Positions 40,621-63,856 of a DNA stretch of 64,000 nt are shown here, in pieces (within the stretch, counting starts at the first letter, position 1; each line of letters opens with the position of its first letter). The stretch is taken from the NCBI GenBank assembly GCA_010093705.1, contig MU006100.1, positions 346,745 through 410,744 of the forward strand, written 5' to 3'. Both the position numbers and the translations under genes were made by a program. The notes below the pieces were generated by a model. The model was not told the origin of the DNA. It made no database searches and saw nothing but the letters and a program-made list of their open reading frames with translations. The DNA is from Patellaria atrata CBS 101060 (taxonomy: Eukaryota).

Positions 40621-42187
40621 CCGTTCTGACGGGTTAGTGAGAAATTTCGACAGGTCGGAGGCTGCTTTGGCTACTTCAGGCCGAGTGGCAACGCTGGCTT
40701 CTAAGCCTCAAGATCTCGTACTACACGGATGCCTAGGAAGTACTGGAGATCTCCAAGGTCTTTCATAGGATATCTAATCATCAAATTTGCTTTAAACTCC
40801 TCTAGTCGATCTGTATCTTCAGGAGAGTACTAGATCATCGACGTAGAAGAATACCGTGAGCCAGCTGTTAGAGTATAAGCAGTTGACTCCTGAGACCTCC
40901 GAGAGGCCCATCTCTTCGAGAGTAGCGGAGAGCAATTTCCACCAGAGTAAAGGGGATCTCTTCAGTTCATATAAGGCTCTCTTCAGTTTTATAACATGCT
41001 CAAGGCTGGAAAGCCATCTGGTGGGAGCAGTACACTTCTTCGTCAAGTATACTGTTCACGAATGCGTTCACCGCGTCTAGATGTGTAGCTTTCAAGCTAA
41101 AAGCAGCTGCAATCGATAGCAGGGTTCTCATAGTACGTAGGGCTAGAGTAGCAGCAAAGGTATCCAGTTGGGTGTGTTGTAGATCACCTCGTACGCAAAG
41201 CCTTGCTTTGAATTTATGGAGGAGTTCATTCTCATCAAATTTGTATGTGAACACCCGTCTTAGTGGCACTATTTCTACGCCAGGAGCTAGGTCGGATCTC
41301 CTAACCATTTCAAAGGTGCCCCTCTCTTTTAGCTCACTGTATTCACGGGTTGCTGCTGCAATCCACTGGTCTCTGGAGTTGTTTGAGAGCTTGCTTCCAG
41401 TGGTCCGGTGGAGCTGGTAGTTCAACATGACGAGAACGACCTGAGGACTTGAGCTCCTTTTTAATTGATGCTAAAAACGTCGCAAACATAGCGTCGTGAC
41501 TTCTTCTCGTGGTCATTCGAAGCTTAAGCTCTCTCCCGAACTATTCCTTGAGCTAGTTCTTGAGATAGCTGCTCCTCTGGAGCGTCAAAATAAGGTTCAC
41601 CTAGTGACTCAATAGGTGGCTGACCTGAAGAGCTGACCTCTGATGGTGGCTCTGTTCTGCTAGGGCTTTCATCTGGTGTAGTTCGTGGAGTAAGCATCTG
41701 TACTGGAGTTTCAATTTGGTTGTCCGTAGCTGGTGACTTAGTTAAGGAGGAGCCAGGGGCTGATCTAGGGGCTATTTTCTCCCCTTTTTGAGCAGGATAA
41801 TCATCCTCATCTAGGACAACCGGATACTCAGCTTGCATAGCCATTACTCTGAGTGCTGGGGGTATCTCCACAAGCTCAATCACCTCTTCAATGGCATCGC
41901 GTAGCACGTGTCCTATATCTAGAGCTTTGAGATCGTAGAACTCATTCTCAGTAAAACGTACGTCTCTGGAAGAGATCACTCTTTTTCGGATTGGAATCCA
42001 GATTCTGAAGATGTTTGACGAGTCGTATCCGACGAGATATCCAATATGGGCTCTAGGATCTATCTTATTAAGCTTTGGTATATTCTTATTCAGCACGTAG
42101 GCTTTGTAACCGTATACTTTCAGGTGGCTGAGGTTAGGTTTACGACCAGTCACCATCTCGAAAGGGGTCTTCCAGTTGAGCCGCTTC

Positions 42188-42802
42188 NNNNNNNNNNNNN
42201 NNNNNNNNNNNNNNNNNNNNNNNNNNNNNNNNNNNNNNNNNNNNNNNNNNNNNNNNNNNNNNNNNNNNNNNNNNNNNNNNNNNNNNNNNNNNNNNNNNNN
42301 NNNNNNNNNNNNNNNNNNNNNNNNNNNNNNNNNNNNNNNNNNNNNNNNNNNNNNNNNNNNNNNNNNNNNNNNNNNNNNNNNNNNNNNNNNNNNNNNNNNN
42401 NNNNNNNNNNNNNNNNNNNNNNNNNNNNNNNNNNNNNNNNNNNNNNNNNNNNNNNNNNNNNNNNNNNNNNNNNNNNNNNNNNNNNNNNNNNNNNNNNNNN
42501 NNNNNNNNNNNNNNNNNNNNNNNNNNNNNNNNNNNNNNNNNNNNNNNNNNNNNNNNNNNNNNNNNNNNNNNNNNNNNNNNNNNNNNNNNNNNNNNNNNNN
42601 NNNNNNNNNNNNNNNNNNNNNNNNNNNNNNNNNNNNNNNNNNNNNNNNNNNNNNNNNNNNNNNNNNNNNNNNNNNNNNNNNNNNNNNNNNNNNNNNNNNN
42701 NNNNNNNNNNNNNNNNNNNNNNNNNNNNNNNNNNNNNNNNNNNNNNNNNNNNNNNNNNNNNNNNNNNNNNNNNNNNNNNNNNNNNNNNNNNNNNNNNNNN
42801 NN
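42188..42802. other. Assembly gap (615 N)
   Basis: Run of N. Confidence 1.
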
Positions 42803-43095
42803 AATAAGATAGATCCTAGAGCCCATATTGGATATCTCGTCGGATACGACTCGTCAAACATCTTCAGAATCTGGATTCCAATCCGAAAAAGAGTGATCTC
42901 TTCCAGAGACGTACGTTTTACTGAGAATGAGTTCTACGATCTCAAAGCTCTAGATATAGGACACGTGCTACGCGATGCCATTGAAGAGGTGATTGAGCTT
43001 GTGGAGATACCCCCAGCACTCAGAGTAATGGCTATGCAAGCTGAGTATCCGGTTGTCCTAGATGAGGATGATTATCCTGCTCAAAAAGGGGAGAA
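42803..43095 (+). repeat. Inverted duplicate of 41777-42069 (copia integrase C-terminal region)
   Basis: 293-bp reverse complement. The identical peptide NKIDPRAHIGYLVGY...PAQKGE is read on both strands. Confidence 0.95.
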
Positions 43096-43668
43096 TATAG
43101 TGCCCGTCGATTAGCTTCACGTTATAGATAGGGGTCTCATTTTGGTTCTCTAGGACCCTCCGCGCATTGTGGAAGATGCCTCCTTTTTCTCCTCTACTCT
43201 GTGAGACAAGGGAGGTCTTGAAGCTGGATACTAGGTAGGCCTCTGTCAGGGTGATGTACGTTCTCTGGCCGCTAGGTCTAATAACTGGCACGTCGAATTC
43301 TCTAATCGCGTCAACTGGAAGTATGAAATCTCCAGCAATGAGTCGAGCATCTAGATCAACCCTCTTAATTCTGAAGATACTCGGATCATTGCAAACGTGT
43401 ATATTAGCTCCTCCGTCAAGCATAACAGATGCTGTAAATTTGTATGGTGTTGGATCTTCAAAGGCGGAGGCTATAAAGATAGCTCCAGGGTCATGGGAGG
43501 TGGTGGCATTAGAGGATGATCTATTATGTTGCTCCTTTCTTTGTCCTCCCTGGTGATCACTTTCTTCTCTAATCCTCCTTACTACATTCTTAATACTCTG
43601 TGGAGCGGCTTCAATCTTTCGTTCAACTTCTTGTTGCTTCTCTGTGGTCCAGTCTTCAGGCCTGGATA

Positions 43669-43841
43669 TGTCACGGGTTAGACCCGATAGGTATAAGTGC
43701 CTTAGATGATCCAGCGGCTTAATAATACTGTTCTGTAGCAGAACAGCATATGCTGTCTCAACACTTTCTTTCCTTAAGTTTAAGCTTCATGTACGTATAG
43801 CAATATACTTTTCAGCTTCCATCTGAGGTTGAGCCATAACA
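43669..43841. mobile_element. Nested solo LTR C (173 bp) in copia gag
   Basis: Termini TGTCAC...ATAACA with TSD GGATA/GGACA (4/5). Removing it restores the gag frame. Same family as 62374-62653, in the opposite orientation. Confidence 0.88.
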
Positions 43842-44835
43842 GGACACTCTTGGATGATTCACGTAACCGCAGTGTTCAAATCTATGAACCTTGCCACAGA
43901 AGCAGGGGTGTTTCTTCTTTATGGCCCCCTTATTAGATTTCCCCTCTGGTGTATGTTGCTCCCCTTGAAAACTGACGAAAGCTGATCCAGTAGCACGGCT
44001 GCTGTACTTGCTATCAGTCAGCTCCAGGGCTCGGGAGTGGATATCGAAAGCCTGGATTATATCTAGGACATCGTCAACTCCGGGCGGGGTAATTTCTTGC
44101 TCCCGTGCGACCTCTTCGTCAGTTTCTCGGGCAGCTGTGGTAGCCACAATCAGCTGCTGGTCTAGTAGCATCTCTCTTACTGATGCCCAGTATGGATCTA
44201 TCTTTTTGAGTGCTTCCAGTAGCTCATACTCAATCATGGAATTGTAGATGAGAGGAATCTTATAACGCACACATTCTCTATATGTTTTTCTAAAGTCAAC
44301 TAACCACCCTTGAATTCCTGTTTTGGTAATGGTGTTTCTATAGCCTCTAATCCGTTTCGTAAGTTCTAGGACGCGTGCTCTATCCGAAGGCTTGAGCCTC
44401 TTCTTAAGCTCAACTAGCCGGCCGTGAACAGTGTCTATATCTTCAATCAAATCTTGGTTGTGAGCGGCTATAGTCTTGATCATTAAGGTGGTTATTTTAT
44501 CTAGGCCGTCTAACTTCCTAAAATAGATGGTCTTTTCTCTTTTGTACTCCACGGTCTCTAAGTCCCCTTGGAGGGTGGGATGCTCCAAGGTTGGTGGCTC
44601 CGCAACGTCCGGATTAATATATTGCTATAGGTCGTATACTACCGCCTTCTTTCGGATAGTTGCAATCCACCGGTTCCAATCGTATGGGCTATCAAGAGAG
44701 ATAACCTTTGTGGAGATTGATTTTGAAGTCATGCCTGCAGCGGTGCGTTTCAAATATGACTAACTGTAATAGGTAGTGGGAGATAGAGGTTTAAAAGATA
44801 ACTCAGATATTATTTAAAAGGCTTAAAGGCAGGCC

Positions 44836-56031: not shown

Positions 56032-58000
56032 AATTGTTTCAACTTGGTGATTTTTTTGTCTTGTTTTTAAGGAAAATATTGTATTTGGGGATGTTCGTCA
56101 TAATTAAAGGGAAGGAAAGATTTTGGAAATTACGAATGCTTTATATAAGAGCTTTGGGGGACCTTAGTCAAAAACCTTAATACTCGAATAAAGGAAGGAA
56201 CATCCGGTGTCCTGGGTGGCCTTAACAGGTTTATTTTTTCCTCGGTGGTAAAAGAACGTATCGTGGGTTTGTTAACGAGAATTCCATAGCCATAGAAGTC
56301 TTGATGATGAGCAGATCCCATAAGTTTTATCTTCAATGTACACTGTCACAAATTTGACTACGGATGGCTGAATTGTAAAACTACTCGTAAATGCACACAA
56401 TGTATACATTGTCTTGCGGGAAACGAATACTTATTAGAGAGTAGAAAGTGAGGTTAGTTCTTTCATGAATTTGAATGTTGTGAAAGTCTCAAATTTACCA
56501 AATGGTCACAATTTTTTAAGAACTTCTTCAAGCGAACAGGCATCCACGCTCAAACAAGAGTACCGTGTAACAAAACATAACGTTGCTGCTCTCCGATATA
56601 GCACCATTATTTTCGAACTAGAGAAGGCTATCTTACCTTCAAGACACAATGCAGTGCTGGAGTTTCTGCTAAAAGAGTAACCGACACCCCTGTGGTACTG
56701 GATAAGCGATGAGGAATCTGGTGACTGTAAATATAAATGCTAGTATTCTGTACAGCAGCTAATAACGGTCATGGACGGTCTCAGTGAAATGATATACAGT
56801 TCTAGTTTCCGAACTCTTTCAGTTCGCTAGGACTTGAATCTTAAATGGAGTAACGGATTGATAGAATAGATAGACTCTTATGCGGAAAAGTTTGAGGGTT
56901 TGGACCTCCTTATGATTTTCCTGATAGTTCGATCTACGACTGACCAATCTGAAGGAAGGTTGACCAATTGCACATATATAAGTTTTTCGAAAACCTGAAA
57001 CGGCTTTCAGATCTATTGGATTGGAACTTCTCTAGAGATCTACATTGGTAGAACTAATCGATGACAGGCTCAGTCTAAGCAAGAATAATCGGAAGACTAT
57101 AACATGTGCCACATGAATAGTATATATCAGAACAGAGCTCTTGTAGTGAAGCCTTACCTTGGCTGGTAGCCTAACAAAAGGGTTGAAGGGCAGAGACTAA
57201 AGGTGTAAGCGAGGGGCAAGGAGTCTGAAATAAATCACGAACGCACCGTATGATTTTGATTGTCTTAAGGATGCAATCCAGTCTGGGTTCGTTGACGAAT
57301 ATTCAAAGAACAAAATGCTATGGACTATTTCTGTGCGTATAACGGTTCTAAATCGGTGATCTTAACGTCGTGTGTGATATTGAGTACAGACGAGATTCCG
57401 TCAGAGTTTGGGTACTTTTAGGACCTTTGTAAAATGGAAAATGGATAAAGAACCCAACTCCTTTGGGGATATGGACCAATAATAAACGCTTAGTACGGTC
57501 TGTATGGAATGGAAGCTGATTTATCCTAAGCTTGCCATTTAAACTTTTGAAATTGTATTTTACGCCACAGTTACCTCTATTTGAACCAAACAGTCCCCAT
57601 TTAGCCCCATTCAACAATAGAAATGGAGCTCAAATAGAGCATCATATTTGCAACCAAACAGGCCCTTATCGTTCACACTGGGCCTACCCTGGGAACCTGT
57701 GACGCGCGGCTGTCTGCCTGTGCAGTTCTTTGGGAGAACCTACCCTAAGGTACATTTTGCACTGCCTAATACCCCAAAGTGAAAATTTTAATGTCTCTTT
57801 TCTACCCTACCTTTCTTCTACTCTTAAGTTACTTTTACTAAACTATGGTTACTTAAATACTTCTCCAAACCCATCACAGCAATAATGACAAGCCCTTCTA
57901 CTTCGTCATTCATTTCTCTTAGACTTCTTTACTACTATAGGAGACGGAACACACACAAACACACATAATAAACTGAAGCCTCGCCTCAGCCTTGTTCGAT

Positions 58001-58323
58001 ATGAAAACCCTCTCTCTTCGGTCTCTCTCTAGCAACGATAATAGCACGAATATCATATTCGGCATACTGACTGCGGTTCTCTCGACTATTTCAATTCTCG
58101 TAGGCGCTTGGCCGCCTGGCGCGAACACCGGAAGAATGCTACACGACGTGAGTCCACCTCGAAATTGAACGCTTTCACTTCATAACAGGGGACTTATTGG
58201 TTGAGAGAGATGTAGGAGTCGATTCGGACCTCGCAGCTAGGACGGATCATGGCGACGTTGAACTACGAGTCCTCCTATCGCGACAGGGGACACGAGTCGC
58301 TACCTAGCATGAAACTCCTCTAG
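58001..58323 (+). pseudogene. Small single-pass membrane protein gene, frameshifted paralog of 60890-61168
   Basis: MKTLSLRSLSSNDNSTNIIFGILTAVLSTISILVG. A 1-nt shift near 58107 gives LAAWREHRK. Intron 58148-58188, then ...DVELRVLL...TAG. Confidence 0.65.
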
Positions 58324-58571
58324 AACATAAGCTATTGATGATTCGAGGGGCGGTGACGGGTAAGGCGTTGATGAACAGGAGCCTACTTTGATGAGAACAA
58401 CAATTGAAGGATAAAAGAAGCGAAGGAGAAGGGAGGTTGGAACAAAGTCGTAGTCTTACAGGAGCGATGTGGGGTCTACCCTCATGTGGAATAGTTGTTG
58501 CATTATCCTGGGCTAGAGCTTTCGGCTGGGACGATCTCGATTAGATGAACTACTGTAGTGTCAAATTTCTA

Positions 58572-59050
58572 GGGGCTGTCGTTTTCACGACCCCTCCTTA
58601 CTACGGTACATTGACACCCCACTAAAAAAGGGAAGGGGTATAACCCAAAGCGGTAGTCGAACTTTTCGTTGCAAATAGCGTGCAAAACTAATATCTTATA
58701 GCAGTAAAATCTAAACGCTAGTATAGCTAAACTCAGGTATACTATTGCAAAGATACTAGGTGAATTTAAGGCCGTATTTGACTGAACACGAATTTAAGCC
58801 GTATCTGACAGTCTGACGCCGTATCTGAGCACGAATCTGAATTACCGCCATAAATTTGAGCAGAAGTATTCAAATTTATCATAAAATCTTGATACTATAC
58901 TAACAGTGTCCGGAAGGGGCCCGGCTAGGTAAGGTATACTGAATTCGACTACCCCTTTAGGTTAGTCTCCTTCCACTTTTAGAAAGGGTGTCAATGTAGT
59001 AAGGATGGGATATCAATGTATAATAAAGGGGTGTCCAAATAACGGCTATC
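58572..59050. mobile_element. MITE-like element with long imperfect inverted repeats
   Basis: 58607-58661 pairs with 58944-58998 (tacattgacaccc...gtagtcgaa). Weaker outer arms extend to 58572 and 59050, with TA on both flanks and internal gccgtat(c/t)tga repeats. Confidence 0.75.
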
Positions 59051-60889
59051 TAAAGTAGAGCTAAGTTGCTATTTAAAACTGTAATGATCGTTGTGAAGCA
59101 TTTGAAAATGTTTTGCGATCGACGTGGAGCATTGTCATGGCGAGTATCTTCTGATGCGAGCTGACCACAACGATACTACTATTGACGAAGAACAACAAGT
59201 TGAGGAGCTATCTACGTGGTGGTAGGGGAAGATATATCTACATGCGCGCCAAGGTGGGCCGATGTTTATCCGTCGTGCTATCAACCACTATTACGATCCA
59301 GATCGTGACAAGCATTCAAAACCATTACTCTATAAACCAGCGATGCCACAGTCGAGCATTTGTCTTGGCACAACTACTATGGAGATTACCCCCAAAAGTA
59401 TTTACAACACCTGCACTACTGCTAAACTGCTTCTAAAAAGTGTAGATATATTCAAAAAAAAGTCGCTAATTATAGTGCAGCTTTTAAAATTGTATTTGCC
59501 ACTTCCGAAGCAATTGATAAACTCACTTTTCTCTTGAACTATTTTATTCTGATTTTTGTAGACGTTCGACGAAACTTTTGCTCGCTGCAGGCTTCCGTTT
59601 TGGGGTTAGTTCGCGTGGCGATCCCGGTACGCCACGTGAAGCAGGTAACAACGGCCTAATCCAAAATCAAAACCATTTCTTCATTTCTTCCAATAATGAA
59701 TTCTGATGATGCGACACATTGAGCAAACCCCAGCATGCCTCCCGTCAAGCACTCGGGAAAATGCACAGTACAGTACATCCCGTAGCAGAGCGATGCCGAC
59801 CCTAGGATGGATTTTGAAGTACCTCCAATTCTCCTTCAGCAAATTGACGGCTTCTACGTCCAACGAGGTCTCGAAATTCGAAATCGTCATGTCCAAAGCA
59901 ATTCGAAGGCAACGTTTCTTCATCTAAAGGAATCTAGGTAGGCTACATGTCATGGGTATTTTCAAACGCATATCGCATATACCTCTGTGGCGTACATGCT
60001 GATGGTGATACTTTAGGGTTAGGTACCAAACCAAAGTGAACAACGCAACAACGGTTACAAACACTCTAAAAATAATGTTTATTCTCTCCCCGATAGCTAG
60101 TCCCTAGCCTCTGTTAGGCCGTAACCTGTCTTTGATGCATGCGACGTAGTACAGTACCTTATGGCTGTACTAAGGGTCAAGACCGAACGACCAGGTAATA
60201 GAAAAATTTTGAGCAGACTTTTGAAATTTAGGACTAATCCTGCATAGAGACCTTTATTTCTAAGTGAGCTGAGGGCGCAAGCTAGGTACTTGAAGTCTTT
60301 TTTGCCAGGTGAAGCTCAGTATTATTGGTCAAATAGTAAAAAGTAAAGTGCAAGGGCAGGAAAGGTAAATAATTATGTAGCCTCACTTCTCCTGGGTAAA
60401 CCTGGTGTCGGACTGGAGATACGGGCGGATTGATTTAATTTCCTATTTCATTACTTCAATCATCATCGTACCACCAGTATCCCTTATTACCTCGCTATTG
60501 CTTGATCGTTCCCTGAAGCTTTTCTATATACTTAACAAGGAGTTCGGCGCATATGACTTATCATTTGAAGAAAGAGAAAATCGCACAATATGAATGCGAT
60601 ACCCCCAGAGACGGAGCAACGAGCGCTCGAGGATAGTATCCGAGCGTCGAGTGAATCGAGAATCCAACCTCCATTTTGCATATCGAAGAAAGTTTTGGGG
60701 AAGGAATCCATTCCTAAGGCCTACCGATCCAGAGAAATTTTTGATTAGAGCACAACCAAATCCAACAGGTGCCAGCGGACATGTTTCATCATGTTCTGTC
60801 ATCAGATAAGTTAGCAACAGTCTCCTATTCAAATGCGTTTACCTTACCGTAATACGTCAACTAAGCTTTCTTACAGAGCAACTTCACCT

Positions 60890-61168
60890 TCACCTCTCCG
60901 TAGTCCTTCCAACCAGGACCCGAAACTCAATGTCATCGTCCCTCCTAGTACCATGTGTATGGGTACCTACCTCTAGTTAATATCATTCGACTTGCTTGAG
61001 TGTCAAACAGGACAGCAACACACCTTGCTGACGGACGAGACGACGATGAGAAGATAAAGTCAAGAAGCCGACGACTATAGAGAGTACTGCAAGCAATGAC
61101 CCGAAGATTCCAAACGCAATAGCAATATTATCGTTCGTTGATAGGGCACGAGGCTGGATGGATGCCAT
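60890..61168 (-). CDS. 75-aa single-pass membrane microprotein
   Basis: Exons 61168-61024 and 60972-60890. MASIQPRALSTNDNIAIAFGIFGSLLAVLSIVVGFLTLSSHRRLVRQQEVGTHTHGTRRDDDIEFRVLVGRTTER*. TATATAAA box at ~61331-61338. Confidence 0.7.
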
Positions 61169-61442
61169 GGCCCCAAGGCGAAATTGATGCGAGTGGTTAC
61201 TGTGCAGGGGGAGATAATTTTCGTAAGGTGAATAAGAGATACGAGAGATGAGATAAATGATGAAGATTGAGCTGATAGATTAGAATATGTAGCTGATTAA
61301 ATGTATCATGAGAAAAGAAAATAGCAGCATTTTATATATCTACAGCGTCGAGGTTGTTCCTGGGCGCCAACTTAACAGAGTGAGCGATTGCGGGGAGGAG
61401 GATTCAAATGTACAGCCTCTTAAATTCCTTGATGTGGGCTGA

Positions 61443-63856
61443 ACGTAGTAAGAACCTTGTGCAGGTCGTGCATGGTTTCAGACCGTGCACAGTCGCCCCC
61501 CAAAAATCGCACCCCATAGAGTGATTTTGAAAATGATGCAACTTGCTCCATATTGGATATATCTATACTAAATTTTATGATGCTGTGAATAAGAAGCTGT
61601 ACTTTCCGTCTATCTACATATCAGGGCTCTGAAATCTCTGTGGCAGTCGTGGTTGCCGTCGGGGCCGACCAGTCGTGGGATTGACCGTTTCTACCTCTAC
61701 TACCTCAATAATATTATCTAAGAGTTCTATAGCTGGTGGTATAACAATCTGCATTTTCTGCTTCGGTTTTTGAGGGGGTCTAAGTGTTTTTTGAGCTTTT
61801 TGTTTAGCTTGTTTGGCTTCTACAGTAATTTGTTGCTGAGCGTTTTTTGCCTCAGCTACCCTCTCCCTCTCCTCCTTATCTTTTTGTCGTTGAAGCTTGC
61901 GCTCTTTAGCTTGTTCTTCTTTCTCCTCTCTACGTAGCTGTTGCTGAAACTTATTATTTACTTGACGAGCCTCTTCTGCAGCTTCATCCTCCTCCTTTTG
62001 CCGTAGGAAATCGCGCGCTTGGGTAATTTTTTGAGGGCTCCAAAACACCGCGCCACCATCCGCTATGCTAATTACTCGTTGTAAAAGAGGCTTCTGCCGT
62101 TTACGTCGCTTCTTCTAGCCCTCAAGAGCCTTAATTAAACCGAAGTTCTGTTGTTGGAGGATAGTATTAGAGGCAGAGAGGAATTGAAATTCGCCTTCAG
62201 TTCTTCGACGACAGGTTGCATTACATCAGAAACAACGGTCTCTAGTTTCTTCTCTATACGTTTCCAATCTTTCTCCGATAACACTGATTAAGCTGATTCA
62301 CTTGAGCTTGGTCTACCACCTATTTGACTAACTGGTTGCCTCTCCGGCTTTGCTAATCCTTGTAGCACTTCACTGTCAAGGCTCAACCTCAGATGAGAGC
62401 TGAAATGTATATTGCTGTATGTACATGAAGCTTAAACTTAAGGAAAGAAAGTAAAAGAGAGTATCAGAACAGCGTGAGCTGTTCTATTAAAGTACAACAT
62501 GACTAAGCTACTGGATCATGCATGCGGCTTAAACTTAAGGAAAGAATGTAAGAGAAAGTGCCAGAACAACGTAAGTTGTTCTATTTAAGTATAGCATAGC
62601 TAAGCCGCTGGATCATCCAAGACACTTATACCTATCGGGTCTAACCCGTGACATTCACTCGGATTATATGGAGAGATACCTGTTTTTTTAAAGCTCCCGA
62701 GGATGTTTTTTTCTGTAAAAGCCTTCTGGTAAGCGGGCCAAAATATCTCAAAAAAGTTCCGTTTTGCAATATTCGATATGCCCTGTGATCGGCTCAAAAA
62801 GTCGTCGAGATTTTGACTGTAATACGTGGCGAGAGGAGAGAATAAGGAGACGTCGAGGGGCTGCAATCTGTGCGTAGAGTGAGGAGGATAGTTGGCTAAT
62901 ATGATCTTATTGCTTATACAATACTCCAAAAATGGCATATTGATATGGGAGCCATGGCCATCGACGATAAGAAGTCTCCAAGCTCGACCAGCTTTGGTTT
63001 TAGTAGAACGGTCAAAAACGGTCTCCAACCACCTCAATCCGAGCTCGTCATTAGTCCATCCTGTCGGCGAAGCAGTAGAAAAACACTCCTGCTCTTCCGG
63101 TCGATAGCCCTCTAACCACGTATCGTGTATCGCTCCTGATACCGAGGGGTGGATGATCCCATGAGGGATAGTTGTTCCATCTGCACAGATTGTAGCTAAG
63201 ACCGTAATCCACTCCCGATTTCCGTCCTGTGCGATTCCCTTGACCCTCCCACTTTCAAAAGTAGCTTTGCTGTAAATCCTACGTGACTTTTTAAGCATAC
63301 CTATGAGGAAGCCCTTTTCATCCATATTGTACGTATTTTCTGGTAGGATACTAAACTTATCGAGCTTACGCCCAAGGAGCTCAAGATAGAGCTTGTAAAA
63401 CGGTCCCTGATCGACCTTATGACGGGCTAAATCAATAGGACTGAGATTGCCAGATTTGAGCTGATGTCCATAGCGCCCATACCACCTCGTAACCCAGCTA
63501 TTTCCAGGTCTTTTCCAACGATATGGCCGGCCAGATTTCGTACAGTTGCAGGCGTAGGAGGGAAAACATGATCAGTTAATCGATTGATATATTTAATAAG
63601 TGTTTTAGACTGCGCCTCGGTCATTAATTTAGAGTTTTCGATTGCTACCTCGCGGAAAACAGTGACATTACGAAAACGCCGCGACAACGTCGTGCGGTCG
63701 TAATTATACTCTTTTGCAGTTTGCGTTATATTAGGAGTATCTTGAAGCTTTAGACTCTCAAGCGCGGCCTCAATAGGAGTCATATTGGTGGTGGTGGAGT
63801 AAGAAGTAGTCATTATTCTGAAACCGTGTACGGCCTGAACAAGACCCTTAGTCAAT
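61443..63856 (-). mobile_element. Decayed pogo/Fot1 (Tc1-mariner superfamily) DNA transposon
   Basis: Imperfect ~40-bp TIRs at 61443-61482 and 63817-63856. Transposase from ~63783 to 61614 with HTH, MDEKGF, LLIVDGHGSH and PPHSTHRLQPLDV. Frameshifts and stops are present. Confidence 0.93.
62374..62653. mobile_element. Solo LTR (280 bp, family C) inserted in the transposase
   Basis: Termini TGTCA...TGACA with perfect TSD TTCAC at 62369-62373 and 62654-62658. Removing it restores the reading YNPSEVLQG. Confidence 0.92.

Follow-up and report, generated by a model that had tools for sequence, protein, structure and literature searches.

Towards the end of a 64,000-nt stretch of DNA from Patellaria atrata CBS 101060 (contig MU006100.1, positions 346,745 to 410,744; the whole stretch is hereafter called the window), two small open reading frames (ORFs) lie on opposite strands among transposon relics, and the question that this locus raises is whether such short, hydrophobic reading frames are genes and, if so, of what kind. 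We find that the locus holds three related copies: A at 58001-58307 (+), B at 61168-60893 (-) and, between them, C at 60103-59805 (-), which was overlooked in the original prediction, made from the letters of the sequence for the frames that start at 58001 and 61168. We consider it fairly probable that the three are clustered local members of a family of single-pass membrane proteins of about 70-100 amino acids in the Pezizomycotina, one that is conserved but has not been described. Copy B would then be an intact gene, copy A a pseudogene with a recent break of the frame just past its helix, and copy C an older relic.

Copy B is a two-exon gene with an intact frame and a predicted spliced product of 75 amino acids. 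From the first in-frame ATG at 61168 (-), exon 1 (61024-61168, 145 nt) encodes the initial Met, a head of the pattern R-x-L-S-x-NDN, a transmembrane (TM) helix and a basic HRR segment. A predicted phase-1 intron of 51 nt follows (60973-61023, GTGTGT...TTAACTAG), which has a branch-like TTAAC site ahead of its terminal TAG and a size in line with that of calibrated introns in the window's housekeeping genes (an EF2-like gene has one of 55 nt). The coding part of exon 2 (60972-60893, EVGTHTHGTRRDDDIEFRVLVGRTTER) runs up to a TGA stop at 60892-60890 and gives the protein the C-terminal end ...DDDIEFRVLVGRTTER, in which we recognize a core tail motif, DIEFRV. All five positions of a stripe of small residues along the helix, described below, are kept in B (G20, G23, A27, S30 and G34). 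Start, reading frame, splice signals, stripe, basic stretch and tail motif are all present, as would be expected from the original prediction that this copy is intact. Copy B is absent from both protein libraries: queried with its exon 1, one library returned no shared words, and in the other the best match reached 41.9 bits, compared with about 109 bits for a match of B to itself. For this reason, B is probably unannotated in the Patellaria atrata genome.

Copy A has an exon layout like that of B, with a change of frame at 58106-58107. Its exon 1 (58001-58147 (+), 147 nt) opens with the first in-frame ATG at 58001 and carries the head, the TM helix and the five stripe residues (G, T, S, S and G, at an offset of +1) in frame 0 up to 58105. 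Frame 0 is lost after G35 (58105), and a family-like reading, LAAWREHRK..., resumes in frame 2 at 58108. A predicted intron of 41 nt (58148-58188, GTGAGT...ATAACAG), which is in phase 1 when the frame break is allowed for, separates this part from exon 2 (58189-58304), which in the shifted frame reads ..DHGDVELRVLLSRQGTRVAT and is closed by a TAG stop at 58305-58307. A frameshift at this place had been predicted, and it is there; its ascription to a single missing nucleotide is less certain, as the break may stem from the loss of one base or from the gain of two (GC). The 2-nt gain would fit slightly better, because it puts the H-R-K of A at the distance from the helix end that H-R-R has in B, where, with the spacing of the family, His lies seven residues past the last small residue. 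Two runs from one sample, in the form of Logan contigs that show 0 differences and 0 gaps relative to the window over 57801-59182 and about 59220-61400, carry the break at about 58107 unchanged, so that an error in this one assembly does not explain it. The two runs, whose contigs show no splice joints, are probably DNA and probably the assembly's own source data, and so their agreement is not an independent confirmation.

The kinship of A and B was originally proposed from a list of common motifs, and all of these (R7, L9, S10, NDN, FGI, SI.VG and D[IV]E[LF]RVL) are indeed shared. The two peptides align with a local BLOSUM62 score of 102, a value reached by 0 of 2000 shuffles both when whole sequences were shuffled (25.4 +/- 4.7, maximum 49) and when the N-terminal, TM and tail segments were shuffled separately (33.1 +/- 7.8, maximum 80). 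A profile built from their first exons and run against the 2652 six-frame ORFs pointed to the site 60103-59927 (-) with E=0.0013, the next match having E=0.28, and this site is copy C. When the six-frame translation of the window (103,425 residues) was scanned with the 11-residue tail of B, the only matches with at least 6 of 11 identities were those of A (6/11) and of C, whose DDFEFRDLVGR agrees with DDIEFRVLVGR of B at 9 of the 11 positions. Copy C comprises an exon-1 relic (59983-60103 (-), GLAIGERINIIFRVFVTVVALFTLVWYLTLKYHHQHVRHR) without ATG and with a TAG directly upstream, a predicted phase-1 intron of 59 nt at the place aligned with that of B (59924-59982, GTATAT...CCTTTAG), and an exon-2 relic (59805-59923, DEETLPSNCFGHDDFEFRDLVGRRSRQ...). 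It retains I-N-I-I-F and the hydrophobic stretch, and G20 is replaced by R. Since C has no start codon, is preceded by a TAG and has lost three of the five small residues of the stripe (2/5 are left), it is a relic.

At the DNA level, blastn finds nothing significant between the regions of A and B (best E=1.2). The proportion of synonymous differences between the copies is saturated (pS 0.80-0.82) and that of nonsynonymous differences is lower (pN 0.41-0.48), which shows, as judged from the predicted coding sequences, that the three copies are old paralogues whose ancient divergence proceeded under amino-acid constraint. Two other origins were considered and rejected. Repeat-induced point mutation (RIP) as the cause of the differences is ruled out, as transversions exceed transitions among the copies, and a recent inverted duplication is ruled out by the missing DNA-level match together with the saturated synonymous sites. 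An intact, a frameshifted and a decayed copy side by side fit the birth-and-death evolution that had been suggested for the pair before the third copy was found.

Are there relatives outside the window? An exhaustive HMMER search of 1.84 billion representatives returned 11 proteins at E<=0.001, nine of which are 55-90 amino acids long, and a profile search raised the number of family matches to 17 at E<=0.01. We define the family here from 21 database modules and left the window sequences out of the membership profile, which covers the N-terminal head and the TM helix; this profile of database members finds B with E=9e-16, A with E=7.3e-12 and C with E=2.4e-4. The proposal that the genes belong to a family of small membrane proteins is in this way borne out by homologs in other fungi. 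Three of them come with organism names, all deposited as hypothetical proteins: K441DRAFT_653211 of Cenococcum geophilum (Dothideomycetes; OCK98857.1, 78 amino acids), K452DRAFT_291790 of Aplosporella prunicola (Dothideomycetes; KAF2137136.1, 68 amino acids) and N431DRAFT_465959 of Stipitochalara longipes (Leotiomycetes; KAE9373681.1). With the window copies they share the R-x-L-S-x-D head, I-N-I-x-F-G, the stripe and a basic stretch rich in W, R and H. The description of the family as unannotated probably holds for B, which the protein libraries lack, and does not hold for members in at least three fungal genomes. In Pfam, the window peptides and 20 members scanned gave only matches below the cut-offs, scattered over 17 unrelated families; among solved structures the best PDB match has E=0.34 and none is significant; and the titles and abstract openings of the literature searched revealed no work on the family. 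One member from Stipitochalara longipes (P0001, 279 amino acids) contains two complete head-plus-helix modules, at residues 32-75 and 194-237, and is probably two tandem family genes merged by the gene caller, which hints at tandem arrays in other fungi too.

The relatives also bear on the gene model. Five metagenome loci (L001-L005) were fetched and represent two distinct genes, for which L001 and L004 may stand here; their TM exons are both 153 nt long and 76% identical. In both, a phase-1 GT..AG intron follows the basic stretch, and the tail exons end in GYEWTLRVGRNH or GYELTLRLGKQ... In L004 the tail lies in another frame than the helix exon and can therefore be reached by splicing only. 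Candidate phase-1 GT..AG introns are found in B, A, C, L001 and L004, in each case 13-17 residues past the last stripe residue, so that the common intron position first proposed for A and B would extend to the third copy and to two environmental relatives. The latter, which stand for one subfamily, have an extra phase-1 intron of 50 nt three to five codons past the ATG (1063-1112 in L001, 85-134 in L004), and the database models P0016 and P0017 read through this early intron, which gives them false N-terminal extensions. The end of P0016 coincides with the start of the second intron in L004, a relative with a near-identical junction; that this model stops where an intron starts implies that truncation is common among automatic models of the family. 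A DUF3807 gene and an HVSL (USB1-like) gene lie on either side of the L001-type gene (L003 1159-1860 (-), L005 463-1587 (-)); this is a housekeeping neighbourhood, and the family is thus not transposon cargo.

What kind of protein would these genes make? AlphaFold2 models the Cenococcum member (P0008) as one helix, residues 11-46, with a predicted local distance difference test (pLDDT) score of 90-98, followed by an unstructured tail (pLDDT 53-64). The mean Kyte-Doolittle hydropathy of the TM segments is 1.9-2.5. Each of the 21 database modules has Gly, Ala, Ser or Thr at positions 20, 23, 27, 30 and 34; within these modules, G20 is invariant and N16 (19/21), I17 and F19 are nearly so. The resulting consensus, N16-G20-[AST]23-[GSA]27-[SAT]30-[GA]34, has heptad spacing (3,4,3,4), and all six positions fall within 20-100 degrees of the helical wheel, that is, on one face of the helix. 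A full-length stripe of small residues with 3-4 spacing is a signature of close helix-helix packing. The N-terminal flank of the helix has a net charge of -3 to +1 and the C-terminal flank is mostly positive; according to the positive-inside rule, a basic flank lies on the cytosolic side, which would place the head outside and the tail in the cytosol. Most likely, then, these are single-pass proteins with an outer N terminus, a basic cytosolic tail and a helix that packs against another helix. We suggest that the short head (R-x-L-S-x-D-N) would be translocated, that the strongly hydrophobic helix would span the membrane while the stretch of W, R and H keeps the C-terminal tail in the cytosol, and that the small-residue face could pack tightly on another TM helix, either of the protein's own kind or of a partner protein, such that the protein would be a small subunit with an accessory or regulatory role. 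A modelling run on the self-association of two copies of P0008 gave a score of 0.01, which is no answer and counts neither for nor against such packing.

The tail is the weakest part of this reading. The core motif, [DE]-hydrophobic-[ET]-hydrophobic-R-hydrophobic, occurs in A, B, L001, L004 and two database members (P0007 and P0008), compared with a background of four other matches in the six frames of the window; the C-terminal motif of P0008 is DFEIRIGR, and the related FEFAIRVGR is found in P0010. The core is probably a short, strand-like docking or trafficking tag, and the disordered, His-rich tail would then end in this alternating motif, ...R-hydrophobic-(G-R), on the cytosolic side. The original prediction had raised the possibility of an acidic/leucine sorting signal, and here we come to a different view: [DE]xxxL[LI] is not conserved, and it is seen in the broken copy A only (ELRVLL), amounting to one of three window tails and none of 22 outside tails. 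The region behind the helix is His-rich, with 26 His in 315 residues when the 15-residue C-terminal flanks are counted, and this may reflect metal or pH sensing. His runs such as HHHH and HxH are seen in it (HTH in B, HQH in C, HQHIH and HEHTH in P0001), and tails of this type are found in P0001, P0003, P0008, P0011, P0018, window copy B (60972-60893) and copy C.

The window carries intron-bearing P450, EF2-like and PRPP-synthetase genes and is filamentous ascomycete DNA. Along it, the cluster runs in the order A (+), an element resembling a miniature inverted-repeat transposable element (MITE), a high-copy repeat, C (-) and B (-). The MITE-like element (58607-58998) has 55-nt terminal inverted repeats, 78% complementary, with 282 nt between them. 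The repeat at 59121-59240 is covered at about 10 times the contig depth of its flanks, with many contig ends and with variant letters, which marks it as a high-copy dispersed repeat in this genome. Beyond B lies the remnant of a DDE_1 transposase of pogo/Tc5 type (62600-63571 (-)), abutted by a 97-nt tandem duplication of 81% identity (62424-62617). With these elements, the description of the small genes as sitting among transposon relics is upheld. Of the 1-kb bins near the cluster, 58001-59000 alone passes the commonly used limits of both simple RIP indices, which are only mildly raised there (TpA/ApT 1.18, (CpA+TpG)/(ApC+GpT) 0.81). Further away, a retroelement relic with an SH3_retrovirus domain (41524-44624 (-)) occupies the one part of the window that is strongly AT-rich, where the GC content is 0.31 at 42001-44000 and the RIP indices are not extreme.

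Several observations weigh against a conserved family with a working member at this locus. Position 16 of B is Ala, compared with Asn in 19 of 21 database modules; Asn16 is kept in A and C, and Ala is also found in the second module of P0001. The six-residue expression for the tail core was written after the sequences had been seen, and when C-terminal tails of six outside members were made into a profile, the window tails were not found at significance, with E=1.3 for C, E=7.9 for B and A outside the top 15. The residue before the core also differs, being Asp in the window copies as compared with Tyr or Phe, mostly Tyr, in the relatives. Splicing and expression of B are suggested by the structure of its relatives, and the gene could be silent. 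Likewise, the orientation in the membrane, the helix to be packed against and the function of the tail are all inferred. Finally, organism names are attached to only three relatives, and although the Cenococcum protein has language-model neighbours in three Ascomycota clusters, with 63, 315 and 254 hypothetical proteins (scores 0.92-0.90), which could mean that the family is large, these are leads and not proof.

These points have to be set against other explanations of the same data. It could be argued that none of the three copies, not even B, is more than a dead or dying remnant that makes no protein here, and that the family was functional in the ancestors and still is in other fungi: two of the three copies are broken, transposon relics flank and interrupt the cluster, B is without the near-invariant Asn16, and neither of the two protein libraries lists it. 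What B has kept argues the other way, as its ORF, start, splice signals, stripe, basic stretch and tail are intact despite saturated synonymous divergence, and we regard a wholly dead cluster as improbable. Another explanation would be that hydrophobic ORFs of non-coding DNA resemble each other by chance. It could draw on the shortness and low complexity of the peptides, on the fact that frames, introns and frameshift had originally been chosen to maximise the similarity, and on the want of similarity in blastn, but with no segment shuffle reaching the A/B score and with E values of 9e-16 to 7e-12 from an independent profile of other fungi, we consider it effectively refuted.

Other explanations accept the family and concern the nature of its product. 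The short ORFs could be the first exons or domains of larger proteins, in which case the two-exon microprotein model would be wrong. Two longer database matches point that way, namely P0001 and P0011 (140 amino acids); however, the former looks like fused tandem copies and the latter like an N-terminally over-extended model of P0008, most of the best matches are short, as described above, and in B, A, L001 and L004 a stop codon comes after the tail motif. A search among 8000 candidates of 159-2000 amino acids found none at E<=0.01, which by the tool's own caveat is weak evidence. Taken together, this makes a larger protein very unlikely. A homo-oligomeric pore in the manner of viroporins or phospholamban, with the face of small residues and Asn lining or sealing a bundle of identical helices, is somewhat easier to imagine but in our view still unlikely. 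Self-associating helices typically have such a continuous stripe of small residues together with a polar Asn, the architecture resembles that of type III single-pass channel formers, and influenza M2 is among the language-model neighbours. On the other hand, the M2 score is only 0.76 and lies within the chance range stated for the tool, no polar ladder that could line a pore is conserved beyond N16 and S/T30, and modelling lends no support. We therefore favor a cluster of small single-pass membrane proteins, of which B would be the intact member.

No part of fungal genomes is annotated less well than the small membrane proteins, and the present family is now defined in a testable way by its head motif, the five-position stripe, the phase-1 intron and the tail motif. 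The cluster itself shows gene turnover at a single locus, where an intact copy stands next to one broken recently and one long dead. If the stripe marks the interface with a dedicated partner, the family could point the way to a subunit, as yet unknown, of some membrane complex in fungi. More tentatively, and with less confidence than we have in the local cluster, one may imagine a family spread throughout the Pezizomycotina, possibly with hundreds of members, that by virtue of an invariant heptad stripe of small residues would be obligate helix-packing microproteins, serving as dedicated single-helix subunits or regulators of a conserved fungal membrane machine, or else a self-assembling pore, and that gene callers would routinely truncate or miss on account of the small second exon. 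We see the present work as a solid annotation result that will hold no surprise for a specialist.

Among known systems, the single-pass membrane microproteins are the kind to which this new and uncharacterised family belongs, and its helix-packing signature is unusually clear. Yeast Pmp1 and Pmp2 and animal phospholamban, sarcolipin and FXYD are single-pass regulatory microproteins of membrane pumps. They are like the proteins described here in their tiny size, the one hydrophobic helix, the basic cytosolic juxtamembrane stretch and the helix-packing function, but the likeness is one of analogy only, as no sequence relation was detected and no such Pfam family appeared in the 20 members scanned. 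The Pmp3/UPF0057 proteins (PF01679) are likewise small hydrophobic membrane proteins of fungi, and one database member, P0014, carries this name in a source. The gathering cut-off of PF01679 was not reached, one of the 20 members touching it at E=0.003 and none of the window peptides doing so. Pmp3 proteins have two helices, whereas the AlphaFold2 model of P0008 has one, and the name on P0014 is probably a mislabel. The dimerisation motifs of glycophorin A (small-xxx-small) are similar in that Gly, Ala and Ser form a conserved face of a single-pass helix. The Glycophorin_A family of Pfam touches two of the 20 members (best E=0.0032), and the PDB entries 1afo and 2kpf give weak matches at E=0.66-0.85, all below threshold. 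These matches reflect composition and not homology: glycophorin A has a single GxxxG, whereas in the present family the heptad-like 3,4,3,4 spacing runs along the whole helix.

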